In this document: positions 19,353-43,190 of the stretch, one piece after another
Numbering within the stretch: the first letter of the stretch is position 1
Layout of the letters: each line of letters starts with the position of its first letter
Source of the DNA: a virus
Taxonomy: Duplodnaviria; Heunggongvirae; Uroviricota; Caudoviricetes
DNA: 64,000 nt
Reading direction: 5' to 3' (one strand)
IMG/VR virus record: IMGVR_UViG_2821091796_000001
Coordinates: 1 to 64,000 of that record
The notes under the pieces: model-generated
Told to the model about the DNA's origin: nothing
Database searches by the model: none
What the model saw: only the letters and a program-made list of their open reading frames with translations
Translations under genes and position numbers: made by a program

Positions 19353-19372
19353 ATTTATCCTCTGTTCCACGC

Positions 19373-21406: not shown

Positions 21407-21434
21407 ATCATAAGCAACATGCAGAGAGCCGATT

Positions 21435-23054: not shown

Positions 23055-23083
23055 TCCAATAGGTTCCATCCGACTTCCTGCTT

Positions 23084-23095
23084 TCTGCTTGCTAT
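23084..23095 (+). promoter_or_regulatory. extended -10 promoter-like box TTGCTATAAC
   Basis: gcTTGCTATAACtg ~40 nt before ATG 23133. Confidence 0.4.
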
Positions 23096-23132
23096 AACTG
23101 AACATAAGCACAGCAAAACAGAGAGCAGCAAA

Positions 23133-23405: not shown

Positions 23406-23524
23406 CACCGACTAACAAGTAAAGGCGGCTCTCACCGTCTTTTTCTTGCAGGTGAGCTCAGCCATGGACCGCCCTGCCCTCTCGTTACCAACAGCAACCA
23501 TTTGAACGCCTCGTCAAATCGTCA

Positions 23525-23562
23525 TATAACTAAAGAACGAAAAGACGAAAGCGCGAAAGAAC
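23525..23562 (+). repeat. ACGAAA tandem-hexamer element
   Basis: aagaACGAAAagACGAAAgcgCGAAAgaACGAgaac. Confidence 0.4.
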
Positions 23563-24043
23563 GAGAACAGCAAATGACCTGGAATTACATGAGAGGGTGG
23601 CTACCTCAGATCAAATGAGCCCGGCTGAAAGAAGCGCCGACACACATACGGTAATGCTGCCATTTGGAGCAAAGTCCGATAGTCGCCCATCCGTCAGGAT
23701 TATCTGGGTGAGATCTTCTCAAACGTATGCCTCACATTGTCCGGCTCGACCGGCAGCAGGTGTTGTTACGGAACTAACCCGCTTGATTGCTCACGATCCG
23801 CACCCTTCGTTGACCTGCACCTGCGGCAGGACTCAATGGGCACTGTCAACTCGGTGCGCGATCAATGAACAATCGTGAAGACAGATATAACCAGGAACGC
23901 GCTACGGCGCGTTTTCTCGTATCTGCACGCAGCCATGGCTGACCTTGGGCGAATCCCATGGCGGCCGGCGGATTAGCGATTTTGTCACTTGCATCAATTA
24001 GGCACATCATTGAATCCTAACCTCAGCTAGTGGGAGATAATCA

Positions 24044-24427
24044 ATGCCTGAGCTTACACCACCTTTCGGACTAACCCGTCTCGAAGGCGAATACATGGGC
24101 GACTTCAGTTCTCGATATGTGGAGTTCTTTAAAGAAGCTGTAGAGGACGCCCATAATCACCATGATATCGTCTCGCTCGTCTACACCGAGGATACTGCGA
24201 TGGCCCACGGCGGATCATCGCCGGATTTCTTTAACGAGAGATTCTTCGAGTTGGGTGCGCATCGCTACAACGATCCGATTTTGCTTCTGCTTGCTGACAG
24301 GGTGATCTTCCGAACCGAATATTATCCAGAGCGCGTAGTCGTAGATCGCTCAATCGGGTTCATTTCCCCTGAATTCGAGAACTTCGCCACCCGGCCCGAG
24401 GATGACTTGGAACTCTCTCAGGACTAG
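24044..24427 (+). CDS. hypothetical protein
   Basis: 127 aa. Confidence 0.4.
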   Translation: MPELTPPFGLTRLEGEYMGDFSSRYVEFFKEAVEDAHNHHDIVSLVYTEDTAMAHGGSSPDFFNERFFELGAHRYNDPILLLLADRVIFRTEYYPERVVVDRSIGFISPEFENFATRPEDDLELSQD

Positions 24428-24479
24428 TTCCAGCGCAACCTTTTCCTGATCCACCCGTTAGACTCGCCTTAAGCACCGA

Positions 24480-24803
24480 GTGAGGCGAGTCATGATGGAC
24501 TATGCGGTAAAGGAAGTCGCCGTTGAAACAGCTCAGATTGGCCGTATGCGCGTTTTAGCGAGCGTGGGCGACTTGGCAAGGTATTTGCTGGAGGAATGGC
24601 CTGACGACGCGGGAGAGAAGCACAGGGCAGCGCGAGAAGCCTGTCTTGAAGCGCTTGCGGGCAAAATCTCTCCGGGCGTCGCGAGGATCGCATTTCTAGA
24701 GGCGGCCGAACAGGACAACGTATGGACCATGGCAACCCAGAGACCTGAATCGACCGGCAAGGTTGAGCACAGATTCAAGCGCCGTGGCGCATATCGCCGC
24801 TAA
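24480..24803 (+). CDS. hypothetical protein
   Basis: 107 aa. Confidence 0.35.
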   Translation: MRRVMMDYAVKEVAVETAQIGRMRVLASVGDLARYLLEEWPDDAGEKHRAAREACLEALAGKISPGVARIAFLEAAEQDNVWTMATQRPESTGKVEHRFKRRGAYRR

Positions 24804-25438
24804 TTCACAATCAACAGCGTGTCGTCGGGAAGCGGCTTCTGTAATTGGAGAGCCTCTTTGAAGGGTGCGGTCATCCAATGATCGACCTCCTCTGGTGTGC
24901 GCAAGATCACCGGCATTGCCTTTGGATGAATCGGCTTGACGACATTGTTTGGATCAGTCGTGAGAAAGCCAAACAGGGTGAAATCACCAGGCCCATCTTT
25001 GACGCGCCTCACGCCGGTCCACTGTGTCCACATACCGGCAAAGAAGAACAGCGGCTTGGTCTGATCCAGGGCGAAGAACACATTGGGCGTCTTTCCCGCC
25101 TCATCCTTGTAAGGGGCCGGCTCAGCAAAGCTGGTCACGGGCACGACGCACCGGTTTTCAAGCCCGTGATATTGTCTCCACCAAGGAAAATGTGAATTGC
25201 GGATATTTGACTGACCGGGATCGTAGTTCTTGCCGACCAGATGCTTAGGATCCGTGGGCAGCCCAAATTGCATAGTCGCCATCTCTCGCACACCATCGGT
25301 GCCATTACGGACGATAGGGGCAAAGGAGTTCTTGTAGACGTTGATATCGGGCTCAAGGTTGCGAGAGATATCTCGCAGAGCGCGAGTGAACAGAGTGATC
25401 TCCGCCTGATTGCTCGCCAGCTTAAAGTAGTTGCACAT
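24800..25438 (-). CDS. SRAP (SOS-response-associated peptidase, YedK/HMCES-like) abasic-site processing protein
   Basis: start MCNYF.. (Met1-Cys2 catalytic nucleophile), ~212 aa, conserved ...PIVRNGTDG ... HSHFPWW-like segments. Confidence 0.6.
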   Translation of the reverse strand: MCNYFKLASNQAEITLFTRALRDISRNLEPDINVYKNSFAPIVRNGTDGVREMATMQFGLPTDPKHLVGKNYDPGQSNIRNSHFPWWRQYHGLENRCVVPVTSFAEPAPYKDEAGKTPNVFFALDQTKPLFFFAGMWTQWTGVRRVKDGPGDFTLFGFLTTDPNNVVKPIHPKAMPVILRTPEEVDHWMTAPFKEALQLQKPLPDDTLLIVN

Positions 25439-25512
25439 CGACGTTCGCCTTCTTGACTCTTTTCCTAAATGAGAACAAATAAGGAACATATTCCGTTTTG
25501 AGCGTCAAGGAT

Positions 25513-25761
25513 ATGTCCGGACCTAAGCATTTACGCCTCGTTGCCGACGTCACCAAGTTCTCCGATTTGGACAGCTGGGAGCATCTCTATGCCTATTGCC
25601 CAGACTGTTTCAGGAAGATGCGTCTGGATAAAAATCGCCTCGGAAGAAAATATGGTTTTCACGCGAGGATCAATACGCTCAGAAAGTTCCTCGCATGCAA
25701 AAATGTGAATTGCAAAAACAAGGTGGGCAACGTGTTTGGCACCGCCAATGAGGCTCGTTAG
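25513..25761 (+). CDS. hypothetical Cys-containing small protein
   Basis: CPDC ... CKNVNC pairs. Confidence 0.3.
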   Translation: MSGPKHLRLVADVTKFSDLDSWEHLYAYCPDCFRKMRLDKNRLGRKYGFHARINTLRKFLACKNVNCKNKVGNVFGTANEAR

Positions 25762-26099
25762 GGCTTCGAACAGAATGCCTCTGTCAATGCTTTGTTGACG
25801 AGAAACCCACCAGGCTCGTGACGTTTGTCAGGATTGTTCTTCAGATACTTTGTCACAACATCCGCTACCTGCTCGCCGCTGATAGGGCTTAAAAGACACG
25901 GCTCTTTCTTTGAAAGCAAACGGATCACATCGAACGAGTCTGCAGATCCCTGCGTATAACCTAGACAGAGAATGTATTCGTCCTTCGTATTATCCTTGCA
26001 TACATTATAGAGATCGTTGCCATTATAGAAACCCGCATGTGCGGAGTTCACACTCGCAGCGCACGCAATCGCAAACAATGCAATTCTCCAGATTCTCAT
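25758..26099 (-). CDS. secreted small Cys-containing protein
   Basis: signal peptide MRIWRIALFAIACAASVNSAHA, four Cys. Confidence 0.45.
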   Translation of the reverse strand: MRIWRIALFAIACAASVNSAHAGFYNGNDLYNVCKDNTKDEYILCLGYTQGSADSFDVIRLLSKKEPCLLSPISGEQVADVVTKYLKNNPDKRHEPGGFLVNKALTEAFCSKP

Positions 26100-26141
26100 A
26101 GCCCCACCCTTCCCCAAGATTCAGTCACATTCTAGTGCAAC

Positions 26142-26483
26142 CTAAATATCAATATCATTCAGCATCAGTTCGTAGGCAGTGGAAAGACGTCTGATCGCAA
26201 GTTGAACCTCCTCCTGACCCCAGCCTGCAGCCTTCGCCTCGCTTACCAAATCGTTCCGGAGATAAGTCTCCCAGAAGATCGTCAGATCCACATTCGCAAG
26301 ATACTCGAAGAACCGCGGCTCGATCGCCTCCTCGCAATCGATGTCACGATCGGGATATGGCTCCGTTCGCTTAGGTGGCGTTACCAGAACCATATGAGCG
26401 GTCCTTCCTCCAACAGGCATTTTGTCAACATCGCGTAACATTGGGTAACGTTCTACCACACAAATGGCACGCGAAGTTGTCAA
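26142..26483 (-). CDS. hypothetical protein
   Basis: 113 aa. Confidence 0.4.
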   Translation of the reverse strand: MTTSRAICVVERYPMLRDVDKMPVGGRTAHMVLVTPPKRTEPYPDRDIDCEEAIEPRFFEYLANVDLTIFWETYLRNDLVSEAKAAGWGQEEVQLAIRRLSTAYELMLNDIDI

Positions 26484-27556
26484 AACTGTAAGCTCACCAA
26501 GTCAAAATAGGTAAATTTGATACGTGATGTTTACGTGATGTTGACAAAACCATCCCCAAAACCGGTTTTTCGGCAATCTGACAACATAGCGTAACATTTC
26601 CGGCAAGCTCTACAGAAGCTCACAGAGAGCGGCCATCAGCTAAGACGAACGAGACAACAGATCGGCAGCACGGAATACACTCAGAACTAAACCTCGAGCG
26701 AAACAGCGCAGCATACGCACCACAGAGAAAAGCTAGACCAGCGCTGCTCGGAAACATATTCGAACCAAGGCTCACTATTCGCACCAGAGCATAGAGGTCA
26801 GATATACGCATGAGCGTCTACAGAAGAGACAGAGAGGCTGCGATCAGACCTATAGAGAGCACAAAGGTCGTATAGATGCATTAGAGCAGAGAGAGGGTGG
26901 ATAGACGGCTGAAAGTGAGTGCTGAGGAACGGTTGGCGCCGCGCCATCGTTGCCTCTCACCAAACCGAACCGCCCTACCCTTCTGCCATGGCGATCCACA
27001 ACTTACCTGCACACACCATTTTCAACCCGATCGAGCCTCTGCTACAACACAGATGCAGACGTTCACTGCACACGGCGCGATTTCTTACGCGCCTCTTTCT
27101 AGTGTGTTGCATGGCACGTTGAACGCGTGCACGACTTGAGGCGGTGTCTTTGCGGATGCCGCCTCACCTTTTCGCCAGGTCGATGCCGTTTTCAGGAACC
27201 GAGCGCGTGTCTTGTCCGGAGATCCAGAAACCATGGGTTGCTCCGGAACCTTCTTTCCCTTTCACACAATTCGCCTTGCTTCGTCTATTACGTATATCTT
27301 TAGGTAGTAGAATATAGACGAACGATGGCGAAGGGAGAAAACGGGAAACCATGGACTCCGGCTCTGAACCGCGGCGTTCCAAGGTCTACCAAGGTCAACC
27401 GCGGCGGATCCCTGCGGTGCCAGTGTATTCCTTGCCGTTCCGCGTCGTCACTTGCCTATACTAGCCAGTATTATGCCAGCATTCCGTGCGATATTGTTTG
27501 AACATCGAAAGCAATCAAGCATTTCGAACAAGCAAACACACATAAGGAATACTGAC
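26484..27556. repeat. approx. 1 kb ORF-free region with short direct repeats and strand-asymmetric (T-poor) degenerate repeats; candidate origin/iteron or ncRNA region
   Basis: GTAACRTT x3, acgtgatgtt x2, TTGACAAAAC-like copies, then ~350 nt A/G/C-rich tract with spaced AGAG...GGTC/AGAC units; no ORF >=60 aa with coding character. Confidence 0.5.
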
Positions 27557-28321
27557 ATGCCCCGTAAGAATTCAAAGAATACACCCGCCGTTGAAACTGT
27601 TACTGTTGAGGAAGAGTCCGTGCTTGTGCAGGCACTTGCCGAGATCGAGTCCGATACAATCGAGGCATCGGCCGAGACCGCTGAGCCGGACGTGAAGCCC
27701 ACCTATCAGACCATTTTTGAGACCTTCGCCCAGGATGAGGCGAGCATCAACCAGACACGCATCGAGGTTGCCAATGCCTTTGATGAGCGTTCAGCCTTTC
27801 AGAAGGCGAAGAACCCGGACAATGAGAACATCCAGAAGACGCTGGCCAAGGGCCGCGCCAAGATGATCGAAGGAGCCAAGGTCGCTGGCCTGCTCTCTTC
27901 CGGCATCTCCTCAGGCTTCATCAACCGATCTGTGTCTGACGGCGAGCGCTTCAACGTCTACGCCGTCGATAAGATGATCGATATCATCAACGCACTCAAT
28001 ACCGGCTCCGAGCTGTCAAATGCCATCAACAATGCGATCTGCCGGTCGCTGTTCCGCTTCAAGAATGCCGGCGAGAAGTTCACGACGGAAATGGCGCTCG
28101 GCGCAACGTCCGACAAGATCCGCATTCAAGGCACTCTGCACAAGATGCTGGTTCGCCATACTGTCTCGGCCAACACTGCGCCGACACAGAAGTCATCCAC
28201 GATCGTCGCCCTGGAGACGCTCGGTATCATCCGCAACGCCGGCACTGGAAAAGCTGCGATCTACGAGGTGCTCGACACACCGCAGGCGCGCCGTTTGGAA
28301 GAGGTGTTGATGGCAGCATAA
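27557..28321 (+). CDS. hypothetical protein with C-terminal winged-helix-like segment (possible replication initiator/regulator; inference from context)
   Basis: 254 aa; ...LETLGIIRNAGTGKAAIYEVLD; sits directly after repeat region. Confidence 0.4.
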   Translation: MPRKNSKNTPAVETVTVEEESVLVQALAEIESDTIEASAETAEPDVKPTYQTIFETFAQDEASINQTRIEVANAFDERSAFQKAKNPDNENIQKTLAKGRAKMIEGAKVAGLLSSGISSGFINRSVSDGERFNVYAVDKMIDIINALNTGSELSNAINNAICRSLFRFKNAGEKFTTEMALGATSDKIRIQGTLHKMLVRHTVSANTAPTQKSSTIVALETLGIIRNAGTGKAAIYEVLDTPQARRLEEVLMAA

Positions 28322-28342
28322 CAGAGCAGAGCATGGAAGATT

Positions 28343-28378
28343 GATGAAGGAGACGGTTGAGGGACCGTCTCTTTTTTT
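28343..28378 (+). terminator. rho-independent terminator
   Basis: ggagacgg-ttgagggacc-gtctc followed by TTTTTTT. Confidence 0.65.
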
Positions 28379-28595
28379 CTTTGGATCAGGGCTGCCTTGG
28401 TATGCCGAGGCGGAATTAGGAACCGGTGGGCTCCATGGGAGCCGGCGTCAGGAATGGCTTGCTATTCCCTGATGATGATCCGGGAAGGCGATCCAATGCC
28501 CGGACCATGGCAAACCCGTCCCCAGGGCTGAACCGCATCGCTCTCATTGCCAGGACTTACCGTTCGATCACCTTCGTGCATTCGTTACACTCAGA

Positions 28596-28622
28596 ATAGA
28601 CGAAAACACGAAAGGACGAATT
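28596..28622 (+). repeat. ACGAAA tandem-hexamer leader element
   Basis: gACGAAAacACGAAAggACGAAttg then ATG 28625. Confidence 0.45.
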
Positions 28623-28624
28623 GA

Positions 28625-28819
28625 ATGCGCGACACCATGACAATCCGCGATTTGGAGAGGCAGTTCATGATCGACACCAGGTCCAAGACGAACCAGGCAC
28701 AGTCCAGTGAGGATGAGGCGTTCACCATCGATGGCAAGGATCTGCTCGCAGCCTTTGCCATCGCCTCCTTCATTTCCGCCGTCGCATTCATCTCCTGGAT
28801 GACCATCTACGCATTCTAG
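28625..28819 (+). CDS. small protein with C-terminal TM helix
   Basis: 64 aa; ACGAAA-repeat leader upstream. Confidence 0.4.
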   Translation: MRDTMTIRDLERQFMIDTRSKTNQAQSSEDEAFTIDGKDLLAAFAIASFISAVAFISWMTIYAF

Positions 28820-29004
28820 GCAACAAGCCAATCGCAGCGTGGGCTGCGATTGGCTTCGCACTGACCTAGCCTCGGTATGCCAAGGCACGAGGCCCCTTCC
28901 CTCTCCATGGGCTCGCCATGGCGTCAGTGCCGGTCCCTTCCCTCGTCACTTAACCTGAACAAGCCGTCCGACATCCATCAGGGCATTTGCGAATCTGTTC
29001 TTGT

Positions 29005-29040
29005 CGAAAACGACTTAACGAAATGACGAAAGGACGACTC
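29005..29040 (+). repeat. ACGAAA tandem-hexamer leader element
   Basis: aacgacttaACGAAAtgACGAAAggACGActc; near-identical copy at ~32908-32945. Confidence 0.5.
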
Positions 29041-29042
29041 AA

Positions 29043-29390
29043 ATGGCAAATCTTCTCAAGCGCGTATTCTCTCCGGCGGTTCGCAAGGCCGCAGAGGCAC
29101 TCGAGCACGCTCTGGCGCTGTCGGACTATACGCAGCAGGCGAAGATGTCGGCTGAGGAGGGCCTGAATACGCAAAAGGCAATCAATGACACAATCAAGCG
29201 TTATGCCGCGCAGCTGAAGGGCATCGGTCTTATGACGCCGGAGGAAGTCTCGACGGAGATTCAGGCATGTCTCGATCAGATGCGGCTCGAGCGTGCGAAA
29301 TCGCTCAAGGCAAAGCGCGAGGCCTGGGAGCGTCGCCAGGAGGAACGCGCGGCACTCAAGCGTGACTATCCGGAACTGGCACAGATCTAG
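29043..29390 (+). CDS. hypothetical coiled-coil protein
   Basis: 115 aa; leader nearly identical to that of 32952 gene. Confidence 0.4.
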   Translation: MANLLKRVFSPAVRKAAEALEHALALSDYTQQAKMSAEEGLNTQKAINDTIKRYAAQLKGIGLMTPEEVSTEIQACLDQMRLERAKSLKAKREAWERRQEERAALKRDYPELAQI

Positions 29391-29810
29391 ACTGGGCGGA
29401 ACTGTTAGGATCAACAGGGCGTCTCGCAAGGGGCGCCTTTTGTCTGGGGACTGGGTTGGCGTGCCAAGGCACGGTAGTTTGGGGAACGGGGCCATATTCA
29501 GGCATGGGCAGCTAGAACGCCTTGGCAGACCATCCTCCGCCGCCTCCCGCGCCAGGCGCCTTGAAATGCGCCATTTTCGCGCGAAAAGCGCGCTACAAGT
29601 AGCGCGCTAGTGCTTCAAGCGTATAGTTTGCATCGTCTCGCGTCTCGCGAATTGCATCTCTAAAGACGTTGCAGTCTGTTGTAGTATCGACTTCGATCAG
29701 TTCGCTTGCTGCATTGTCATACGCATGTGCTTGCGCGCTCAATACGTGTTTCTTCACTTTGTTCTTTTTCATGATGTTTCTCGCAAGTGTGATCGACTAG
29801 CATTCGCGCT

Positions 29811-29832
29811 AGTCAATCAATTTTGATTTACT
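29811..29832. promoter_or_regulatory. palindromic motif copy between two minus-strand genes
   Basis: agtcaatcaattttgatttact. Confidence 0.5.
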
Positions 29833-30406
29833 TTGTTTCGATAACAGAACGAAGCTTCTGCACAATTGTGCTATCTGCATTGAGCTTATATGTGTGCTTC
29901 GAAACGAGAATGATCATGTTGAGCGCTTGCAGCGACTTCAATGACATTTCAGCTTGACGCTTTGCAGCCTCAAGCATCTGCTCGCGACGTGAAATATACT
30001 GCTCATGATCTTTAGCGATTGCAAAACGCTTGTCTTTCGCGCTTGTGCAGCTTGCACATGCATCATTGAGCGTCATGTGCTTGTCAGCATCAAACAGCTT
30101 GCACGCTGTCATGAATACAGTGCGCGCATTGTCAGTGAACTTGTCTAGTGAAAGCGACTTAAGCGCGACTTGCAGATAAACGGTAGTGCGATCAATCGCT
30201 TTCATGTCGAAGAAATTCGTCGCGTTCTGCTGCTTGTTGATGAATGCAGCATCGATTGCGTTTTCTTCAAGTATTTCTGCGATAGCTGCTTGCTGAAAAT
30301 AAGCATAATTCTTTTTGAGCTTAGCAAGTGTTGCACTGCAAGCTTTGTCTTGCTCGCGTTCAATACGTGCTGCGAACATGTCTGCGATTGCGTTAGTCTG
30401 TGTCAT
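29828..30406 (-). CDS. hypothetical protein
   Basis: 192 aa in AT-richer segment; palindromic motif overlaps its stop. Confidence 0.4.
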   Translation of the reverse strand: MTQTNAIADMFAARIEREQDKACSATLAKLKKNYAYFQQAAIAEILEENAIDAAFINKQQNATNFFDMKAIDRTTVYLQVALKSLSLDKFTDNARTVFMTACKLFDADKHMTLNDACASCTSAKDKRFAIAKDHEQYISRREQMLEAAKRQAEMSLKSLQALNMIILVSKHTYKLNADSTIVQKLRSVIETK

Positions 30407-30864
30407 GATGTTTCTCTTTCTGCGTTGCTTCGAAGTCTCTTATTCGCTTCGATGATTTGACTATAAGCATTTCTCTAAGCTTGTAAAGTCACTTACTGCA
30501 AAATAGATAACTTTTCTTTCATGTGCACATTTGACTCACAGAGCGCGCTAGAGCGCGTTGACGTGTTGCTAAGTGTATGTGAACGCGAAAGAGCTAGAAC
30601 GCGCTGTGTGACGCGCTGTGTTCGAATGCGTATATGTCGCGCGAGTTATCGAGCGTGCATTGAACGAAGTCTTAGAAAATTCGCGTGGTCGCTGTATGGG
30701 ATGCCTTCTGTCGCCTGAGCACTCCGGAAACGAAGCACCTCTATTCGTGGCAGAATGGCGCTCTACGGACGATAGGACGAAGGGACGAAATAGCGAATTC
30801 GCCATTTACCGGACTCGCTGCATTTGGTAATACGCAAGTGGGGACTTGGAGGAGTTGGGGTATC

Positions 30865-31713
30865 TTGTGGCATTTCGTAGAGAATGAAGCTCCTGTCGGG
30901 CCAGTGTCCGAGCAGGAAATGATTGATCGTATTCGTGACGGCCGAATTAAACCGTCAACGCTGGTCTGGTCCGAAGGCGCTGTTGGCTGGGAACCAGCGG
31001 ATACTGTGGAAGCTTTCAACAGGGTGTTCCGCGTAACTCCGCCTCCTCTTCCCTCTGCCACAAAAGAGCCGCCTCCTGTCGTTGCATCCGCTACTGTAAA
31101 AGAAGAACCAAGAGTATCCCTTCGGCCCGAACCGCCCGTAATCGAAGTGCAGGGCTCACCATGGTCTCGCTTCGCAGCTAGAGGGCTCGACCAGGTCATA
31201 TGGTCGATTCCAATGATTTTCGTGCTGTTGATGATTGTGGCGATCACTCACAGTCAGACGTTCATCAAGCTATTGGATAATCGCGTAGCCGCGATCCTGA
31301 TGTCGCTGCCCATCTTCGGTTTGTTCAACGCGCTATCGATGTCGATATTTGGGAACACTCTCGGAAAGGCCCTTATGGGCGTAGTCGTCAAAGCCAAGGA
31401 CGGAGCCAGGGAGGGCTTTCTGTTCTATCTCATTCGCGAGCTAAATGTTCTCGTTGTTGGCTTTGGATTTGGGATTCCATTCGTTTCTCTATTCACGCAA
31501 TTGTATCAGCACAGCCAGGTGAAAACAAAAGGTCAGGCAAGCTACGATAAAGGCGTTGCTCGGGTAGAGGTATATTTCACCAGCAATGTCCGCGTGGGTG
31601 TTGTGCTTACGGCTGTCGTGCTTGCAACCGTGTATTTCAATTCACCTGCCGCGGAACCTCTCGCAATTGCGTTGGGCAAAGCCGCCGGCAGTCTGGTCGC
31701 AAGTTTTCGCTAA
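30865..31713 (+). CDS. DUF4339(GYF-like)-RDD family membrane protein
   Basis: WHFVENEAPVGPVSEQEMIDRIRDGRIKPSTLVWSEGAVGWEPA (DUF4339-like) followed by multi-TM RDD-like domain; start uncertain (TTG 30865 or GTG 30838). Confidence 0.45.
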   Translation: MWHFVENEAPVGPVSEQEMIDRIRDGRIKPSTLVWSEGAVGWEPADTVEAFNRVFRVTPPPLPSATKEPPPVVASATVKEEPRVSLRPEPPVIEVQGSPWSRFAARGLDQVIWSIPMIFVLLMIVAITHSQTFIKLLDNRVAAILMSLPIFGLFNALSMSIFGNTLGKALMGVVVKAKDGAREGFLFYLIRELNVLVVGFGFGIPFVSLFTQLYQHSQVKTKGQASYDKGVARVEVYFTSNVRVGVVLTAVVLATVYFNSPAAEPLAIALGKAAGSLVASFR

Positions 31714-31949
31714 TTAACGAAGAGACGAAATGGCGAAAGCGCGGCTTTCACGTCCAGAGAAAAACCATGTATGTCGAGAAGAGCTACGCATGGTATTTCA
31801 GCCTCCTGAGTTCCAGTCTCTGTTCCTTGTCCAGTCCGCCGTGCTTCTTCAACCAGATGAGAAGCTGTAACCGGGCCGCATTACGGCGCTGCTGAATCTC
31901 GAGGGAACGAAAGGACGATTCCAATACTTCGTTCATTCGTTCAAATGCC

Positions 31950-32480
31950 TCAGACATAGGGTTTGCCCATCCAGTAATCGCGCACGATCTTGTCGGCGCG
32001 CTGCCAAAGGCCGAAATCTCCTCCCTGCAGAACAGTCAGGAGAACTTGCTTCTCGCGCATGTAGACTTTGGCAAAATCCGGGTCGTGTGCGACGATTGTG
32101 GCTGTGTTGTCGATGAGATCGCACAGCTTGATGGTCATGGCATCGTTCGAGATTGTGGCGATCCGCTCCGTCTCAAGCTTAAACCGTGTCTTCCGATTGC
32201 CAGCGCTCATGGGAACCTTGTTGGTCAGTTCATCAACCAGCTTGCAGACACGGACATCGAAATATTCGCGCAGCAGAGCCAGGGTGACGCCGGTATCCTC
32301 GACCACGTCATGCAGGTAGGCGGCGCAGAGCATGGCATCATCATAGTTCGCTGCTTGCTTAACGAGCTGCGCCACTGCGACTGGATGAACGATATAGGGT
32401 AGTCCCGTGTATTTACGGCGTTGATCGATTGCCGCATGCGCAGCATTGGCAAATAAGAGTGCATTTCCTGGAATATTCAT
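31950..32480 (-). CDS. small alarmone hydrolase (RelA/SpoT-type HD domain, (p)ppGpp hydrolase)
   Basis: AAYLHDVVEDTGVTLALLREYFDVRVCKLVDELT matches SpoT/Mesh1 HD hydrolase core; 176 aa single domain. Confidence 0.65.
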   Translation of the reverse strand: MNIPGNALLFANAAHAAIDQRRKYTGLPYIVHPVAVAQLVKQAANYDDAMLCAAYLHDVVEDTGVTLALLREYFDVRVCKLVDELTNKVPMSAGNRKTRFKLETERIATISNDAMTIKLCDLIDNTATIVAHDPDFAKVYMREKQVLLTVLQGGDFGLWQRADKIVRDYWMGKPYV

Positions 32481-33161: not shown

Positions 33162-33434
33162 TCACTTCGCCGCCTTGTGCTTTTCGACCCAGGCGGCGAA
33201 GGCCTGCTCAAGCAGATCGCGATAACTGATATCGTGCGTTGCAGCCGTCAATTTAAACACGCGTTTGAACTCCTTATCGACCTTGAAGTTCAAATTTGCA
33301 TACTCTGTTTCAGTCATATTGTTCGGAACAGAAGTCGGCGCAAAGGTCGGCACTTCTGACAAACCACCCAGAAACGACGCCCTCGCGCGTTTTGGTGCCG
33401 GAACAGGGGCCTTCGTTGTCTTTGTGTCAGCCAT
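33162..33434 (-). CDS. ParG-like ribbon-helix-helix partition protein
   Basis: 90 aa, disordered basic N-terminus then short helical C-terminus; immediately downstream of and overlapping parA. Confidence 0.45.
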   Translation of the reverse strand: MADTKTTKAPVPAPKRARASFLGGLSEVPTFAPTSVPNNMTETEYANLNFKVDKEFKRVFKLTAATHDISYRDLLEQAFAAWVEKHKAAK

Positions 33435-34074
33435 TATACTTCTCCTCTATCTCGTTAACACGTGACACGATCTCCGCGGCCAACTGGTCCGCCCGCTCGT
33501 TCAATGTGGGGAAATTCGTCTCGGCAATCGTCAAGCCAACGTTCTGCGCCATTTGGTAGCCAGTCTTATGGCCGAGATCCGTCTCTGCAACGCGGTAGAT
33601 GCTCGACAGATATTGTCTGGCCTCCTGCACCGCGAGCTTGCTGTCCGTTGTCTTGTTGAGAACAAACAGAATGGTTTCCTTATCGACACCGCGCTCCACG
33701 AGCTCGTTGGCGAAGAGAATTTGCGGCTCCAGGTCGTCCAGCGTCAGTCCGGTCGGTATAACGTTGAGCGTGGCAATCCTGGCGATCTCAAGCGAGGATT
33801 GATCACTATCTGGCGTCCCATCGGCGACGATCAGGTCGTAATTGTCGCGCCGGATTGAGCGGATCGTTGTGCAGACCTCGGCAGCAATTTCAGGCGTCGC
33901 CCCAAGCGCCATTCGACGCGCCGCCCATTTGGTCGAAGTGAGCTGATTGACGTTGAAGTCGGCGATCTTGACGCTCCAGCCCGCCGACGCGTAGGTCCGG
34001 GCGATGAGACGCGCAAACGTTGATTTGCCGACGCCGCCCTTCTGGGACAAGCACGATATGACGTTTTCGACCAT
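33427..34074 (-). CDS. parA: ParA/ParF-type partition ATPase (small type Ib)
   Basis: deviant Walker A SQKGGVGKST, 215 aa. Confidence 0.75.
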   Translation of the reverse strand: MVENVISCLSQKGGVGKSTFARLIARTYASAGWSVKIADFNVNQLTSTKWAARRMALGATPEIAAEVCTTIRSIRRDNYDLIVADGTPDSDQSSLEIARIATLNVIPTGLTLDDLEPQILFANELVERGVDKETILFVLNKTTDSKLAVQEARQYLSSIYRVAETDLGHKTGYQMAQNVGLTIAETNFPTLNERADQLAAEIVSRVNEIEEKYNG

Positions 34075-34077
34075 TAG

Positions 34078-34112
34078 TCTTTTCGCTCCTGCGTCTTTTC
34101 GTTCTTTCGTCC
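34078..34112 (-). repeat. ACGAAA tandem-hexamer leader element in parA 5' UTR
   Basis: minus-strand reads aaggACGAAAgaACGAAAagACGcagg then ggagcgaaaagacta ATG. Confidence 0.45.
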
Positions 34113-34191
34113 TTACATGATTCGTAGGGATTCTCGCAAGACACGAAAAAGGGGCCAGAAGGCCCCTTTACACTTATTCAGGTTTCGGCTG

Positions 34192-35610
34192 CTAAGCAGC
34201 GAGCTCCTCCTTCAGACGCTTCTCGGTGCGAGCACGCAGCTCAGAAAGGGAGGTTAGTGCTTCGAGATTTCCCTTCGAGTAGACCACTTTGAGCAGATTG
34301 TCTTGCAGTTCGACCTGATCTTCAGCCAGTGTTACGACCGGATAATCAATGAGCCTTGTCGCGCAGACTGCAAGACGACCCGCCTTTGACGCCTTCGTCG
34401 GATCTGTCGCCGGCCGCTTCTGAACCGGAACCCATTCGCCATTGTCGATCTGAATTGCATTTGCCTTCATAGCAAAGCGCAGGTCATCGCGCATGACGCC
34501 CTGGAGAAGTCCGCCTCCCATGCCAACAGCGATATTGTCAGCCGACCAGCCTTCAAGCAGAAGGGTGCAAAAGAGTCGGTCGATCTTCTCGAGGTCCATG
34601 CCGTCGCCCTGGATGACGCGCACCTTTGGGTTCAACACCTTGTAGCCTTTCGAATTGATCGTCCCGCCGAACTTTTCCCAAAGCGCGTGAAGGACATCAA
34701 GAGGAGTCGTTACCGGATCACCGCTATCAGGACGAACAACCAGCGTTCCGCCCATCTTGAGCACTTTTTCCTTCAATTCGCCGCCCCAGACGTTCTCGAC
34801 TGCATTCATGAGGTCGTAGCTGTCAGAAACGACCGCAACGATACCAGACCCGAACTGATCGATCATATTGCTGTAGGCATCGGCCTCGCGATCCTTGCCC
34901 CAAGAAGTGATGGTCGAATGTTCCGCGGCTGGGATTGAGAAAGCTGGCATCTCGTTGGCGCCATAGTATCGACGGGCAAATTCCAGCGCTTCCATCGTGT
35001 CAGTTCCTTTGAAATTGACCAGATGCGCGAACCCGCCAAGTGCTGCACTTTCGCTCGAAGAAACGCCCCTTGCGCCGAAATCATGCAGTTTGAAGGGTAT
35101 CTGACCATCCGGATCTTCGGAGCTTTGCAGAAGCGCCCTATAGATGATCTTTTTCACATGGTAAGAAAGCGTTGCGACAGTCGAGGGATACCAAATTGCG
35201 CGGAGCAGGGCGGTTTCGATGAAGGTCGAGAGCCAGGGAAGACGCGGATCCAGATTGCGCACCTGCACAAGCGGCGTTCCCAGCGGAACGACGGATCCTT
35301 CGGCAAGCGCCTGAATTTCGATCGGCAATCGGCCGTTATGCTCGAGCCGGATAATATCCCATCCTTCACGATTGAACGGCAGGCCATGCTCCTTGCAGAC
35401 CAGTTCGGCCTCATCGACATCAAGGCTGTCGATCTTCTCTGTGAGATACTGCTTGATGAACGCCTGCAGACCAACAAAAACGACCTCTTTGAAAATCCCG
35501 CCGGCGCGTGCTTCGACATAGGCCGAAACAGCGGTCGTCTGGGGCGGATATTGAAGGAAGTGAGACTGTTTGTAGCTATCGGTAGCAAGAATAAGATTGC
35601 GGAAAGACAT
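34192..35610 (-). CDS. nadV: nicotinamide phosphoribosyltransferase (NadV/Nampt)
   Basis: 472 aa; N-terminal ILATDSYKQSHF and overall Nampt-family layout. Confidence 0.8.
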   Translation of the reverse strand: MSFRNLILATDSYKQSHFLQYPPQTTAVSAYVEARAGGIFKEVVFVGLQAFIKQYLTEKIDSLDVDEAELVCKEHGLPFNREGWDIIRLEHNGRLPIEIQALAEGSVVPLGTPLVQVRNLDPRLPWLSTFIETALLRAIWYPSTVATLSYHVKKIIYRALLQSSEDPDGQIPFKLHDFGARGVSSSESAALGGFAHLVNFKGTDTMEALEFARRYYGANEMPAFSIPAAEHSTITSWGKDREADAYSNMIDQFGSGIVAVVSDSYDLMNAVENVWGGELKEKVLKMGGTLVVRPDSGDPVTTPLDVLHALWEKFGGTINSKGYKVLNPKVRVIQGDGMDLEKIDRLFCTLLLEGWSADNIAVGMGGGLLQGVMRDDLRFAMKANAIQIDNGEWVPVQKRPATDPTKASKAGRLAVCATRLIDYPVVTLAEDQVELQDNLLKVVYSKGNLEALTSLSELRARTEKRLKEELAA

Positions 35611-35660
35611 CGTGAACTCCTCACGTTTGAATTTTGATGGAACAGCGGACTCCCCGCTGC

Positions 35661-36719
35661 TTAGAAACCGATCATCTTCTGCAAGATTGACCAGTGATCC
35701 TCGAAGAACACCTGTGGCTCGAGGTCGCCAAGACGATACCAGTCGGCATGTTCGGCATCGTCGGAGCCCTTCACTGTGAAAAGCTCCTTTGAATCGGGTA
35801 GAACGAACCGATAGGCTGTTGTCACAATCCTACCGCGCAGTGAGCGCTTGGGGTGATCGAACAATTCGCTTCCGGTGATGAAGGATGCGAGCATCGAGGG
35901 CGGGATTTCGCCCTTTCTGTCAGAGATTTTGGTCTCTTCCTTCAGTTCACGCACCGAAGCATCGCGGATCTGCTCGTTCTCGTTGACGAAGCCGCCGGGA
36001 AGAGCGAGCAGGCCGTGACCGTATTCCTTGCCGCGACGGATCAACAGCACATGACCGGATTGTGTGACACAGGCGTCGGCCGTCAGGAACGGGCCTTTGC
36101 CATAGGTCTTGCGATAGTCGATCAGATATTGCTGCTCATACACGCGCCTCTTGAACTCTTCGGTGAGCATGTATTCTTCCAGAAAACCCGCCACCTGGTC
36201 ATCAAGACCGCGTGTAGGGATCAAGGGAAGGGGTTGAAAGTAGGCAGCACGAATGTTCGACGCATTGAATGTGCCGAACTGACTGCCGATCTGGATCGAC
36301 TCCCACTCAGGAAAGCGTTTCAGATAAAAGCCGGTAGCGTCCTTCCCGAAGCCGGCAAGAGCGACCTTGAAGTCATTGATGCCTGAAGTGTGGAAACCGT
36401 GATTGTTTCCGTATTCAAGAATGATATCGGTAATCGTGCGCTGCACGCTCGCGATCCAGGCACTATCATTGTAGAGATTATCTTCCAGCGGCTCAACGAT
36501 GAGACGTTCAGTTGCCATTTCGTGGCGAAAGACACGATGGATCATCTCCTTGCGTTCCTCGAAAGTGAACGGGTTGGCGAAGTCCCTGGCGATGTTGGAA
36601 GATCCGATCAGCACGATCACTCGCTCAGCCTGTTTTAAAGCTTCACGAATGACGTGCTGATGACCGATATGCAGTGGTTGAAATCTGCCGATGAATACGG
36701 CGAAGTGATACTTAGACAC
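35661..36719 (-). CDS. nadM: bifunctional NMN adenylyltransferase / Nudix hydrolase (NadM-Nudix)
   Basis: FIGRFQPLHIGH (H/T-x-G-H nucleotidyltransferase motif) N-terminal; C-terminal Nudix box GGFVNENEQIRDASVRELKEETKI. Confidence 0.8.
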   Translation of the reverse strand: MSKYHFAVFIGRFQPLHIGHQHVIREALKQAERVIVLIGSSNIARDFANPFTFEERKEMIHRVFRHEMATERLIVEPLEDNLYNDSAWIASVQRTITDIILEYGNNHGFHTSGINDFKVALAGFGKDATGFYLKRFPEWESIQIGSQFGTFNASNIRAAYFQPLPLIPTRGLDDQVAGFLEEYMLTEEFKRRVYEQQYLIDYRKTYGKGPFLTADACVTQSGHVLLIRRGKEYGHGLLALPGGFVNENEQIRDASVRELKEETKISDRKGEIPPSMLASFITGSELFDHPKRSLRGRIVTTAYRFVLPDSKELFTVKGSDDAEHADWYRLGDLEPQVFFEDHWSILQKMIGF

Positions 36720-36844
36720 TCGAGACTCCCTCGAACTATGTTGAATGCGCTGAACTCCTCAGCGCTCACACAGACTATTATAGCAGCGATCGTCAGGGCT
36801 ACATCGAGAAAATGCAGGAAAGTGCACGGCGGCTGATCCCGTAT

Positions 36845-36890
36845 AAGGACGAAAGGACGAAATCGCCCTTTCGTTTATTCGTTATACCCT
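36845..36890 (+). repeat. ACGAAA tandem-hexamer element with inverted partner
   Basis: aaggACGAAAggACGAAAtcgcccTTTCGTttattcgtt. Confidence 0.4.
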
Positions 36891-37358
36891 TGTATTCTCT
36901 ACCATTTTGAACTTCTTCTTGTCGCGAATGACAGAAATGAAGCCCGAGAGGAAACCGTAGTCGTGCATGACGGGACGATTCTTAAGCAAGCCCCAATTGC
37001 CTTGATGCACATCAGTGCAAAAGTCTGGCACTTGCTTGGGCACACGTTTGGCTGAAATCTCTTTTGTCCGTTCCATCACAAGAATGGATCCGCTGCGGGA
37101 GATAAAGTGGCAGGGAGCAAGCCATTGACCGGCTGGCGTGTCCTTCAACTGGTGCCAGACGTTCCATTCAGTCACATTACAGAAGTCTCGCTCCGCGTGT
37201 GGCGTCTCTATTTTGTAGACGAGATCCTCACGGCCAGGCACCGCGTAGACGTTGCGATACTTTCCTTGGCCGAGATTTCCGCCGAGCATGAAGTGATTGA
37301 ACTCTTCCTGAATCGGAGCGAGCCAGTCGTAGAGCGGAGTAGGGGTGTAATTGGTCAT
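36882..37358 (-). CDS. small protein-kinase-like fold protein
   Basis: GGNLGQGKYRNVY (Gly loop), VYKIE (beta3 Lys), DVHQGNWG (catalytic loop-like). Confidence 0.4.
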   Translation of the reverse strand: MTNYTPTPLYDWLAPIQEEFNHFMLGGNLGQGKYRNVYAVPGREDLVYKIETPHAERDFCNVTEWNVWHQLKDTPAGQWLAPCHFISRSGSILVMERTKEISAKRVPKQVPDFCTDVHQGNWGLLKNRPVMHDYGFLSGFISVIRDKKKFKMVENTRV

Positions 37359-40277: not shown

Positions 40278-40982
40278 TTGTCGCAACCGAAAACCGAACT
40301 GCTTGACCCGAATACGCTCCAGAAAAACCCCTGGAACACCAATATCACCACACCGGAGAACGACGCCAAGCTCGAGGAGTCGATTAAGAAGTTCGGCTTT
40401 ATTCGGCCAATACTCGTTCGCGAAGTAGAGGAGGGTCTTCAGATCCTTGGTGGTGAGCATCGATGGGAAATTGCCAAGAAGCTAGGAATCGACGTTCTGA
40501 TCCTCAACCTCGGCGCTCTCGATGATCCGACAGCCAAACAAGTCTCAATCCTCGACAATACGCGCTATGGAACGGATGACACGCTCGCCTTCGCCGAACT
40601 CTTGAAGGAACTCTCAGGCTACGATGACCTGCAGTATCTTCCCTACTCAGATGCCGATTTCGAAGAAATCTTCTCGACTACTCATATAGCGCTCGACGAC
40701 TTGGGTATTGAGGAGAACTTCGACAATGACGAGGAAATCGACAATACACCTCCCGAACCCAAGGCGCCAAAGACACACACTGTCATGCGCTTTAAGGTTC
40801 CCATCCTCGATGCCGAGCGCATCACGGCGAAAATCGCCGAAACTCGTCGCGATCATGATCTCAATTCCGCTGATGAACTCACCAATGCCGGCGATGCTCT
40901 TGTTCATCTTCTCGTCAGTCGATCGGCTCCTGTCGACGTTAGTGACATGGAAGAAGCCCTTCTGGCGGATCTCGACGTATGA
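40278..40982 (+). CDS. ParB-like nuclease domain protein
   Basis: FGFIRPILV ... ILGGEHRWEIAKKLG (ParB/Srx fold); TTG start. Confidence 0.6.
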   Translation: MSQPKTELLDPNTLQKNPWNTNITTPENDAKLEESIKKFGFIRPILVREVEEGLQILGGEHRWEIAKKLGIDVLILNLGALDDPTAKQVSILDNTRYGTDDTLAFAELLKELSGYDDLQYLPYSDADFEEIFSTTHIALDDLGIEENFDNDEEIDNTPPEPKAPKTHTVMRFKVPILDAERITAKIAETRRDHDLNSADELTNAGDALVHLLVSRSAPVDVSDMEEALLADLDV

Positions 40983-41164
40983 GCACCAAATTTCCTGATT
41001 GCGTATCCTGTAAATTCTACAACAAGCGCTTCGTCGGCAAACGCGCCAATCCAGTCTGCGGAGAGTGCGACAACGGTGAGTTCTATGAGGAGTGGGTGCG
41101 CAACAGGGCTCTGAACGACAATGAATTGATGTCCCTTTACGGAAAGATGCACCATGACAACTAA
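40979..41164 (+). CDS. zinc-ribbon protein
   Basis: CVSC ... CGEC. Confidence 0.4.
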   Translation: MSTKFPDCVSCKFYNKRFVGKRANPVCGECDNGEFYEEWVRNRALNDNELMSLYGKMHHDN

Positions 41165-41816
41165 GACCCCAGCTGAGACAGTTGAGCTCTGGGATATTGA
41201 CCGGATCAAGGAATACAAACTCAACGCCAAGATCCATAATGAAAAACAGGTCACTGACCTTGCAAAGTCGATTAAAGCATTCGGTTTCTCGCAACCGATC
41301 ATTGTCTGGACGGACGGCACCATCATTGCAGGTCATGGGCGTCGACTGGCTGCCATCTCACTGGGAATGAAGAAGGTTCCTGTCGTATGTCGCTCGGATC
41401 TTTCCAAGGCGGAAGCCGATGCTATGCGCCTTTCCGACAATAAGGTGACATCGGTCGAATACGATATGTCCATGCTGCAGGATGAGCTTCAGCGCCTCGT
41501 CGGCGAAGATATCGATATCGATCTGACCGGTTATTCCGACTTTGAAATCCAGTTTTCGACAGATGATATCGGAGAAATGGACGAGGGCGCCTTTGTTGGC
41601 GATATCGGCGCCGCTGTCGAGGTCCAAGCTGAAGAGAACAAAAGGGCTGCAGGCGTCGTTGATGATGTGGCTGCGCCAATCACCGATGCGCTTGGCTTCA
41701 AGCGCGTGACCATCGCCCAGTCCCGCACCATTCGGGAACTGGTCGCTCGCGTCGAAGCCAAGACCGGCAAAACTGGAGTGGATGCGCTGATAGCTGTGCT
41801 ATCGGCCGCCGCATAA
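41154..41816 (+). CDS. ParB-like nuclease domain protein
   Basis: FGFSQPIIVW ... IIAGHGRRLAAISLG. Confidence 0.6.
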   Translation: MTTKTPAETVELWDIDRIKEYKLNAKIHNEKQVTDLAKSIKAFGFSQPIIVWTDGTIIAGHGRRLAAISLGMKKVPVVCRSDLSKAEADAMRLSDNKVTSVEYDMSMLQDELQRLVGEDIDIDLTGYSDFEIQFSTDDIGEMDEGAFVGDIGAAVEVQAEENKRAAGVVDDVAAPITDALGFKRVTIAQSRTIRELVARVEAKTGKTGVDALIAVLSAAA

Positions 41817-42244: not shown

Positions 42245-42885
42245 TGGAATACGTCATCAACCGCGCTTTCTCATCCTCTGTTGAGCGCACGCCGCGCGTG
42301 CTTGAACTTGCCGAGGGCTTCGGTCTTGGTCTGACCAACAAGGAATTCGTAATCTACGACAACCTGGCAATCAATATCGATCAGGGCGATGTCGTTTACA
42401 TCACAGGCCAATCAGGTTCCGGCAAGTCGGTTCTCCTGAAAGATCTCGCTGCGGAAATGAACAAGTCTCTTTCCGTGATGGATCTCAACCAAATCATACT
42501 CGATCCGCACCTTCCTGTGATCGATCAGGTCGGGCGCAATACGGTCGAGGCAACTGGGCTCCTGGCGAAGGCCGGTATCTCCGATGCCTGGATCTACATC
42601 CGCAAGCCAGGTGAACTCTCCGACGGACAGCGCTACCGCCTGAAGCTGGCAAAGATGATCGAAAACACCGTCGCTGATGTCTGGATCGCCGATGAATTTG
42701 GCGCCGTCCTCGACCGCGTCACGGCGAAGATCATCGCCTTCAACATGCAAAAAGTCGCTCGATCTCTCGGCAAGACACTGATGGTCGCCACGACACACAC
42801 CGACCTGGACGAGGAACTCGGCCCGGATCTTACAGTCACAAAACGCTTCCGCGAGAAGGTTGAAGTAACAGGAGAAAAGCAATGA
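42244..42885 (+). CDS. ABC-type ATPase domain protein (no TM domain)
   Basis: Walker A GQSGSGKS, signature LSDGQRYRL, Walker B IWIADEF, H-loop ATTHTD. Confidence 0.55.
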   Translation: MEYVINRAFSSSVERTPRVLELAEGFGLGLTNKEFVIYDNLAINIDQGDVVYITGQSGSGKSVLLKDLAAEMNKSLSVMDLNQIILDPHLPVIDQVGRNTVEATGLLAKAGISDAWIYIRKPGELSDGQRYRLKLAKMIENTVADVWIADEFGAVLDRVTAKIIAFNMQKVARSLGKTLMVATTHTDLDEELGPDLTVTKRFREKVEVTGEKQ

Positions 42886-43190
42886 ACTTTGGTCAAGCAA
42901 TCGAAATTGTAAAGCGCGGCGGGAAGGTCGCTCGTGAAGGCTGGAATGGAAAGCGCATGTTCGTCTTCCTACATCCCGGTTCTGCCCCGCGCGCAACCCA
43001 AGTCAAGCCGGTAAGTCCGGATTTGGATCTCATCGCCGGCATTGACAAGAACCATTTCGAAACCGGCGCCGAGGGCTCAACAATTCGCCTTCCATCTCTT
43101 GGGCTGCGGACAGTGGACGGCTCAATGCTGATCGGTTGGCTCGCCTCCCAGACGGATGTTCTGGCCGAAGACTGGCAAGAGGTTCGCTAA
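42882..43190 (+). CDS. DUF2829 family protein (Tad2-like, Thoeris anti-defence candidate)
   Basis: MNFGQAIEIVKRGGKVAREGWNGKRMFVFL opening typical of DUF2829; ~100 aa. Confidence 0.45.
   Translation: MNFGQAIEIVKRGGKVAREGWNGKRMFVFLHPGSAPRATQVKPVSPDLDLIAGIDKNHFETGAEGSTIRLPSLGLRTVDGSMLIGWLASQTDVLAEDWQEVR

Follow-up and report, generated by a model that had tools for sequence, protein, structure and literature searches.

An adjacent Nampt and NMNAT-Nudix gene pair of the NARP2 type in a tailed phage of Rhizobiales

Why would a tailed phage carry, side by side, two enzymes that together could rebuild nicotinamide adenine dinucleotide (NAD+) from nicotinamide? The question is raised by two minus-strand genes in the IMG/VR virus record IMGVR_UViG_2821091796_000001, of which positions 1 to 64,000 were analysed (this stretch of 64,000 nucleotides is called the window below). 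The carrier is a ~118-kb tailed phage of Rhizobiales, from a source assembly of Phyllobacterium myrsinacearum. A first-pass annotation, made from the sequence without database searches, had described a full-length nicotinamide phosphoribosyltransferase (Nampt) next to an archaeal-type nicotinamide mononucleotide (NMN) adenylyltransferase (NMNAT) fused to a Nudix hydrolase, and had read the pair as a NARP2-type NAD+ reconstitution pathway. Both open reading frames (ORFs) were verified exactly where, and on the strand on which, they had been placed, at 34192-35610 and 35661-36719 with a spacing of 50 nt, and profile, structure and motif matches agree with the description of the two proteins. The features of the pair are as follows:

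34192..35610, minus strand: Nampt (NadV), nicotinamide phosphoribosyltransferase, 472 amino acids (aa), ATG start; predicted to convert nicotinamide and phosphoribosyl pyrophosphate (PRPP) to NMN
35661..36719, minus strand: NMNAT-Nudix fusion gene, 352 aa, GTG start at 36719
36120..36719, minus strand: NMNAT domain of the NadM/archaeal type, approximately residues 1-200 of the fusion; predicted to convert NMN and ATP to NAD+
35679..36083, minus strand: Nudix hydrolase domain, approximately residues 213-347 of the fusion; predicted ADP-ribose/NAD(H) pyrophosphatase

The family matches of both proteins score far above chance. Nampt matched NAMPT_N (PF18127; 89.7 bits, cutoff 25) and NAPRTase (PF04095; 184.6 bits, cutoff 20.8) in Pfam, NF006629 in NCBIfam (593 bits, cutoff 405, with profile positions 4-462 of 465 covered) and PHROG 448, 'nicotinamide phosphoribosyl transferase' (E 2e-159), as well as the solved structures of Xanthomonas Nampt (7yqo, E 6e-132) and human NAMPT (2gvg, E 4e-119). 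The fusion protein matched CTP_transf_like (residues 8-67) and NUDIX (E 5e-14), and with these all the Pfam families that the first-pass annotation had singled out for checking (NAMPT/NAPRTase, CTP_transf_like, NUDIX) were recovered. Its NMNAT domain also matched TIGR01527 arch_NMN_Atrans and PRK05379, and the best NCBIfam model for the whole protein was NF003786 (PRK05379 'bifunctional NMN adenylyltransferase/Nudix'; 333 bits, positions 13-353 of 354). Among structures, the NadM-Nudix protein of Synechocystis (2qjo, E 7.5e-65, residues 2-350) and that of Francisella (2qjt, E 3e-49) were matched; both are cellular enzymes with full-length homology to the window protein and with the same HxGH motif and Nudix box. 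The GTG start is supported by the alignment of the N terminus with homologues from residue 1 onwards.

Catalytic residues are preserved in all three domains. In the alignment with human NAMPT, 15 of 15 key residues are kept, namely Y18, F193, R196, D219, H247, R311, D313, G353, D354, G383, G384, R392, K400, K415 and K423, the first seven of which correspond to Y13, F178, R181, D204, H231, R293 and D295 of the window protein. In the human enzyme H247 is catalytic, Y18 and F193 stack on nicotinamide, and the Arg, Lys and Gly residues bind PRPP or phosphate. The role of this Nampt histidine as a catalytic phospho-histidine has been stated explicitly (PMC12774641). The phosphoribosyltransferase therefore belongs to the Nampt family with its active site intact; placement in another family, or loss of catalytic residues, is what the first-pass annotation had named as fatal to its proposal. 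In the fusion protein, the NMNAT motif GRFQPLHIGH (H17-I-G-H20, HxGH) is invariant relative to NatV of phage KVP40 and to the homologue in Rhizobium phage RHph_X66, and the Nudix box G243-x5-E249-x7-R257-E258-L-x-E261-E262 is common to the same three proteins. The Nudix domain can be aligned throughout with 2qjo and 2qjt; where the canonical box has its penultimate Gly, the window protein has Lys, the Synechocystis enzyme Arg, and those of Francisella and KVP40 both Asn. We infer the activities of both enzymes, and the substrate of the Nudix domain, from these homologues and motifs.

To which of the described NAD+ reconstitution pathways does the pair belong? In the definition of Osterman et al., NARP2 consists of a Nampt and an Nmnat, both of the KVP40 type, in a phage that lacks Adps, with homology to KVP40 NadV taken at E < 1e-5 (10.1101/2024.02.11.579819). 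The window Nampt is 49% identical to KVP40 NadV over 421 aa (E 9e-132), and the NMNAT-Nudix protein is 32% identical to KVP40 NatV over its full length (E 6e-48). A second KVP40 protein, 'nadR' (KVP40.0211), was tried as a comparator in place of NatV and set aside, as it is of the NadR type and its match was limited to the HxGH region. The locus thus combines a NadV homologue of the Nampt clade with a NatV homologue, both encoded by a phage in whose 64-kb window no Adps gene was found, and by its sequence the pair is of the NARP2 type. The nearest phage homologues, those of RHph_X66, B1VFA and Cp1R7A-A1, like the pair of V1VFA-S, already carry annotations of this kind and are listed as 'Nmnat-associated' in Table S2 of Osterman et al. 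(10.1101/2024.02.11.579819). The original NARP2 assignment is in this way upheld by the KVP40 homology, the intact catalytic residues, the phage context, the tabulated relatives and the lack, discussed below, of the aromatic clamp and of Adps in the window. KVP40 itself encodes both enzymes with an identical domain layout (NadV, KVP40.0264; NatV, KVP40.0162), yet in this T4-like myovirus of 245 kb, which has NadR and PnuC as well, 43 kb separate the two genes, whereas in the present ~118-kb phage they are adjacent.

Since Namat, the phosphoribosyltransferase of NARP1, is homologous to Nampt (36% identity, with a common catalytic core), the pair has to be weighed against a NARP1-type arrangement, in which the window enzyme would be a Namat joining nicotinamide to ADP-ribose (ADPR)-pyrophosphate (ADPR-PP) supplied by an Adps from another part of the genome. 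The search for Adps covered 64 kb of the ~118-kb genome, which leaves some room for such an arrangement; within the window, however, tblastn with the Adps proteins of Bas63 and SPbetaL1 returned only noise (E at least 0.27). Moreover, the partner gene encodes an NMNAT, which would be superfluous for NARP1, and the window Nampt is far closer to Xanthomonas Nampt (E 6e-132) than to SPbetaL1 Namat (9W5X/9W5W, E 1.5e-67). The adenine-clamp aromatics F392 and Y396 of Namat enforce the use of ADPR-PP (PMC12774641); in the window Nampt the positions that correspond to these SPbetaL1 residues are occupied by G367 and G371 (GMGGGLLQGV). Finally, no phage with both NARP1 and NARP2 was found by Osterman et al. 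(10.1101/2024.02.11.579819). The sequence evidence thus largely refutes NARP1 within the 64-kb window, and we regard a Namat at this locus as improbable in the extreme. NARP1 (Adps and Namat), NARP1-AP and NARP3 (NadR and PnuC) share with NARP2 the outcome that NAD+ is rebuilt instead of the defence being blocked. They differ in that NARP1 uses ADPR-PP and needs Adps and the aromatic clamp, and NARP3 depends on the import of nicotinamide riboside. The window holds no component of either pathway, and a scan of ~75 window ORFs against Pfam or PHROGs revealed neither NadR nor PnuC.

A different substrate has been suggested by name. The NCBI product name of the window Nampt (MBA8881699.1) is 'nicotinate phosphoribosyltransferase', this NCBI/PGAP name and the title of NF006629 both say nicotinate, and some relatives are annotated likewise; on this reading a nicotinate phosphoribosyltransferase (NaPRTase) would supply nicotinate mononucleotide to the adenylyltransferase and the host NadE would complete NAD+. 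Yet the Nampt-specific N-terminal domain PF18127 is present, models of PncB-type NaPRTases gave only 18-38 bits against cutoffs of 297-663, and the top solved homologues are all Nampt. In human NAMPT, D219 selects nicotinamide over nicotinate, and the equivalent D204 is kept. A nicotinate route is therefore very improbable, and both the NARP1-type and the nicotinate-specific readings are essentially excluded. The NCBI name is misleading, and a correct annotation is the value of the present analysis in this respect. Six window proteins, including Nampt and the DUF2829 protein (MBA8881711.1), are each singletons in clusters at 90% identity.

What would such a pair do during infection? We consider it probable, with good though incomplete confidence, that it makes NAD+ in two steps and buffers the phage against NAD+-depleting defences; the counter-defence role and the timing of expression are drawn by analogy from KVP40-type homologues. 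With the KVP40 pair, defence by Thoeris and by DSR2 was abolished and NAD+ rose (10.1101/2024.02.11.579819), and aRES was cancelled too (10.64898/2026.01.28.702374). By the proposed mechanism, Nampt would join nicotinamide to host PRPP to give NMN, with His231 (human H247) as the site of ATP-dependent autophosphorylation, and the NadM-type N-terminal domain of the fusion would adenylylate NMN with ATP to NAD+. The Nudix domain, judged by its homologues, most likely cleaves ADP-ribose, which is the other product of the SIR2, TIR and SEFIR NAD+-cleaving enzymes, to AMP and ribose-5-phosphate, and host Prs could recycle the latter to PRPP; the same domain may also trim excess NAD(H). KVP40 NatV was reportedly found by Lee et al. 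in 2017 to be active on ADPR, NAD+ and NADH. In an infected cell, transcribed from a promoter of its own, the pair would sustain NAD+ under type I Thoeris, DSR1/2, SIR2-HerA, aRES and the like, and a supply of NAD+ would work without recognising any particular defence system.

Does the cassette have expression signals of its own? The elements around it are:

36882..37358, minus strand: gene for a mini protein-kinase-like protein, 158 aa, co-inserted with the NAD+ pair relative to related phages
36849..36874, minus strand: hairpin 3' of the stop of the kinase gene (36882); -18.8 kcal/mol, z -4.15, a stability reached by none of 200 shuffles
36777..36785, minus strand: promoter-like extended -10 box TGCTATAAT, 58 nt ahead of the GTG; read from the sequence
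36726..36732, minus strand: ribosome-binding site (RBS) GAGGGAG, 6 nt before the GTG at 36719; read from the sequence
35617..35622, minus strand: RBS GAGGAG, 6 nt ahead of the ATG of Nampt (35610); read from the sequence
34146..34166, minus strand: intrinsic terminator GGGGCC-TTCT-GGCCCC-TTTTT, 26 nt past the stop of Nampt; read from the sequence, its fold having a 9-bp stem with -18.9 kcal/mol and z -2.85

The hairpin at 36849..36874 is a possible transcriptional insulator ahead of the cassette; its function as a terminator is uncertain, because no clear U-tract follows it. The box TGCTATAAT is a putative promoter element for which no good -35 hexamer was found. As the 50-nt gap between the two genes has no U-tract terminator, they are probably co-transcribed. 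With the upstream hairpin, the -10 box, two RBSs and the terminator, the pair looks like a self-contained transcription unit. A scan for consensus promoters and terminators over 31-44 kb gave no enrichment relative to shuffled sequences, and it missed both the TGCTATAAT box and the Nampt terminator.

Where the cassette sits in the genome bears on how it came there. The window holds genes for a large terminase, a portal, a scaffold, a 1578-aa tape measure, RIIB and RtcB as well as two tRNAs, and the gene order along its backbone matches that of Rhizobium phage B1VFA and of separate 114-119-kb contigs from Ensifer and Ancylobacter isolates. Three of these relatives, the Ensifer ENS10 contig, B1VFA and the Ancylobacter contig, served for the backbone comparison. 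In all of them the order runs from TerL through the Tad2-like gene, an ATPase and two ParB_N genes to a helicase, and then through a small ORF, a dNMP-kinase-like gene, a gene of 133 aa in the window and of 148 aa or 53+80 aa in the relatives, ParA and a ribbon-helix-helix (RHH) gene; orthologues are 27-79% identical between the window and the three relatives. In the relatives ParA directly follows the 148-aa gene, whereas in the window the mini-kinase, NMNAT-Nudix and Nampt genes are extra at that point, and together they form a ~3.3-kb insertion at ~34075-37358 in an otherwise collinear backbone. The pair was absent at the orthologous site in three of three relatives.

Other phages of the kind hold the pair at another place. 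RHph_X66, B1VFA and V1VFA-S (Rhizobium) and Cp1R7A-A1 (Mesorhizobium) have a related backbone and the same order and adjacency of the two genes, and NMNAT followed by Nampt, adjacent and on the same strand, was seen in eight viral loci. In RHph_X66 and the IMG/VR locus L008, however, the pair lies between RtcB and a prohibitin gene, whereas in the window it lies between the 133-aa gene, with the kinase gene, and ParA; the window has RtcB (7613-8998) and prohibitin (9992-10597) with no NAD+ genes between them. Because the sites differ between related genomes, the cassette is mobile or variable cargo within one phage family. Relative to RHph_X66, B1VFA and Cp1R7A-A1, Nampt is only 61-63% and NMNAT-Nudix 43-46% identical, although backbone genes of these Rhizobium and Mesorhizobium phages reach 55-79%. 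When phage records were searched for DNA nearly identical to the 33-39-kb part of the window, only the dNMP-kinase-like gene was matched, at 76-79%, and no close genome was among them. In a 2025 phage collection, homologues of NadM-Nudix occur in 481 records and those of Nampt or Namat in 2019.

For the NMNAT-Nudix protein, the most similar copies are found in bacterial chromosomes. Among 61 bacterial loci obtained by scanning species-representative genomes, NadM-Nudix lies directly upstream of Nampt on the same strand, with a gap of 57-131 nt, in 53, on Mb-scale alphaproteobacterial chromosomes. These nadM-nadV operons (Sphingomonadales, Roseibium and others) have the order and strand of the window pair, their NMNAT-Nudix proteins being 54-60% and their Nampt proteins 57-65% identical to it, and presumably serve housekeeping salvage; the window copy, unlike them, lies between phage replication and partition genes and is flanked by hairpins. 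In simple neighbour-joining trees, built without bootstrap, NMNAT-Nudix falls beside the bacterial clade and Nampt groups with RHph_X66 and L008, inside or next to that clade. Most likely, phages took over a nadM-nadV operon of the host type, perhaps on more than one occasion. Its base composition (~0.53 GC) and GC3 are the same as those of its neighbours, so that there is no compositional sign of recent transfer.

Such an origin brings up the main competing explanation, in which the pair is a metabolic booster for replication, or a lysogenic-conversion moron that, if its own promoter is active in a plasmid-like carrier state, gives the host nicotinamide salvage, with defence evasion at most a side effect. 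Lee, Li and Miller are said to have read the KVP40 genes in 2017 as part of nucleotide-precursor metabolism. The chromosomal occurrence of the same two-gene operon in 53 of the 61 loci fits this well, as do a promoter-like box and terminator of its own, typical of morons, and the plasmid-like features of the element, which has ParA-RHH and two ParB_N genes and relatives that occur as separate 114-122-kb contigs. KVP40 NARP2, moreover, raises NAD+ even without a defence system (10.1101/2024.02.11.579819). On the other hand, homologous pairs neutralise Thoeris, DSR2, Nezha and aRES in tests (10.1101/2024.02.11.579819; 10.64898/2026.01.28.702374), the cassette is variable cargo in the phage family and not core metabolism, and the genome also carries a Tad2-family gene. 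We give the metabolic explanation some weight and consider it unlikely as the chief role; the metabolic and counter-defence roles are not mutually exclusive.

Several points nevertheless weigh against the counter-defence reading. A purely metabolic role fits the same data, because NAD+ production by NARP2 does not depend on an active defence (10.1101/2024.02.11.579819), and the architecture of the cassette is identical to that of a housekeeping operon of Alphaproteobacteria. The window NMNAT-Nudix is nearer to bacterial copies (54-60% identity) than to phage copies (43-47%), and it scores under the NCBIfam equivalog cutoff (333 versus 397 bits), for which reason we take it as a family-level member and not as an equivalog of any curated subgroup. 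The expression signals are at the level of consensus only. Lastly, 64 of ~118 kb were covered, so that Adps or other NAD+ genes may lie elsewhere in the genome.

Do the neighbouring genes make the locus a dedicated anti-defence island, as had been proposed at first? The genes in question, beside the mini-kinase gene given above, are:

31950-32480, minus strand: HD_4 / Mesh1/SpoT-hydrolase-type small alarmone hydrolase homologue, by family matches
33162-34074, minus strand: small ParA gene overlapping an RHH (ParG-like) gene
40278-40982 and 41154-41816, plus strand: two ParB_N genes
42882-43190, plus strand: Tad2-family protein (PF11195, formerly DUF2829), 102 aa; 78.6 bits, cutoff 25

The first-pass descriptions of the neighbours (a protein-kinase fold, a (p)ppGpp hydrolase, a DUF2829 protein) hold at the family level by profile and structure matches. 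The island itself is not supported, because the dNMP kinase, the helicase, ParA/RHH, ParB and the Tad2-like gene are conserved backbone and none of these travels with Nampt in other loci: no backbone neighbour was found beside Nampt in the 19 viral and 61 bacterial loci. A PADLOC scan of the neighbours likewise returned no defence system and only generic helicase and P-loop similarities.

Compared with structures, the product of the Tad2-like gene matches HgmTad2 (8kbi, E 1.8e-18) and also SptTad2 (8wjd), ModTad2 (9eib) and SPO1 Tad2 (8sme). The gene lies 6 kb from the pair on the opposite strand, has a 4-nt overlap with the stop of the ATPase gene in front of it, and keeps its place in the backbone of the Ensifer and Ancylobacter relatives. 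It can thus be said that the genome holds at least two counter-defence-type functions, NARP2 and a Tad2-like protein. Since NARP2 stands beside a Tad2-family gene, Thoeris-like immunity may be countered at two levels, by sequestration of the signal and by refill of NAD+. In the Ensifer and Ancylobacter relatives, an Acb2/Tad1-hairpin gene (PF24729) lies beyond ParA-RHH (12834-13202 of locus L087 and 9013-9399 of L090); a homologue of it is absent from the window, where different genes, the HD gene among them, fill that stretch. Counter-defence genes may thus be exchanged with particular frequency in this variable part of the genome. As to lifestyle, relatives of the phage are found repeatedly as contigs of their own (114-122 kb) in isolate assemblies of Ensifer, Sinorhizobium, Rhizobium and Ancylobacter, and together with ParA-RHH and the two ParB_N genes this suggests a plasmid-like or carrier-state existence; no integrase was seen in the window.

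Could the HD gene be a third member of the module? A Mesh1/SpoT-type HD gene lies directly upstream of NMNAT, on the same strand, in Cp1R7A-A1 and in the IMG/VR locus L009, and within 10 kb of the pair in RHph_X66 and L008; in relatives its coordinates are 7327-7884 (locus L007) and 8402-8797 (L009). In three more distant phages, DSS3P8, phiM19 and BUCT-ZZ01, the 4 kb around the pair carry no annotated HD gene, and its linkage to NARP2 looks restricted to a lineage. The recurrence could reflect shared synteny or a functional link. That NARP2 in this lineage is an extended module, with the HD phosphohydrolase acting on the NAD pool rather than on (p)ppGpp, is a long shot. If it were so, the substrate of the HD protein might be the 2'-phosphate of NADP(H) or a phosphorylated derivative of ADPR, in parallel to NARP1-AP; metazoan MESH1 has been reported as an NADP(H) 2'-phosphatase. 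A still weaker variant would make the co-inserted 158-aa mini-kinase a functional partner of the pair. The kinase-like protein belongs to a large family of ~150-aa proteins with 1045 cluster representatives, in which the Gly loop, Lys, Glu, D..N and D-Y-G typical of protein kinases are kept. Its AlphaFold2 (AF2) model has a predicted local distance difference test (pLDDT) score of 90 and matches PknB, Rio1/2, APH(2'') and minimal effector kinases, and a single-sequence locus search with it returned one locus.

The NAD+ pair is a real and correctly identified further case of the known NARP2. It offers a clean and compact example, with adjacent nadM and nadV, in a little-studied family of ~115-120-kb Rhizobiales phages, and its likeness to the host-type chromosomal operon illustrates how phages capture whole salvage operons. 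Such a compact cassette is well suited to a study of what the Nudix domain contributes to counter-defence. The interest is otherwise local, residing in the mobility within a phage family, the bacterial-type origin and the co-residence with a Tad2-like gene, and current understanding of NARP2 is unchanged.

A few minor observations may be added. In Sinorhizobium phage phiM19, a Macro-domain ('Appr-1-p processing') gene (locus L092, 7563-8036) lies 2.5 kb downstream of NMNAT-Nudix; the phosphoribosyltransferase gene of this phage is shorter (302 aa), and the Macro protein recalls the Adpp phosphatase of NARP1-AP. RtcB occurs within 10 kb of Nampt in 7 of the 19 viral loci (L001, L007, L008, L009, L011, L013 and L020). 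The window RtcB (7613-8998, plus strand) is 25 kb from Nampt, and in RHph_X66 and L008 the pair is just downstream of RtcB. A ~16-kb stretch of the window, at ~14500-31900, has few counterparts in the compared parts of RHph_X66 and L008 and holds host-like genes. Features of this stretch, and of the tail region, are:

15864-16054, plus strand: tandem tRNA-Met (CAT) and tRNA-Cys (GCA)
18001-19296: FadL/TodX-type outer-membrane protein
19373-19849: DnaA_C-like helix-turn-helix
23133-23405: DUF5983
24480-24803: DUF982
24800-25489: SRAP peptidase
25758-26117: Rap1a immunity protein
30685-31713: GYF_2+RDD membrane protein
56098-60834, plus strand: 1578-aa tape measure; the N-terminal 900 residues match an endolysin PHROG (E 5e-225)

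The ORFs at 15812-15988 and 15993-16328 overlap the tRNAs and are for that reason probably spurious. The product of 56098-60834 is probably a tape measure with a lytic domain, because the rest of the protein matches tape-measure and baseplate-hub lysozyme families.

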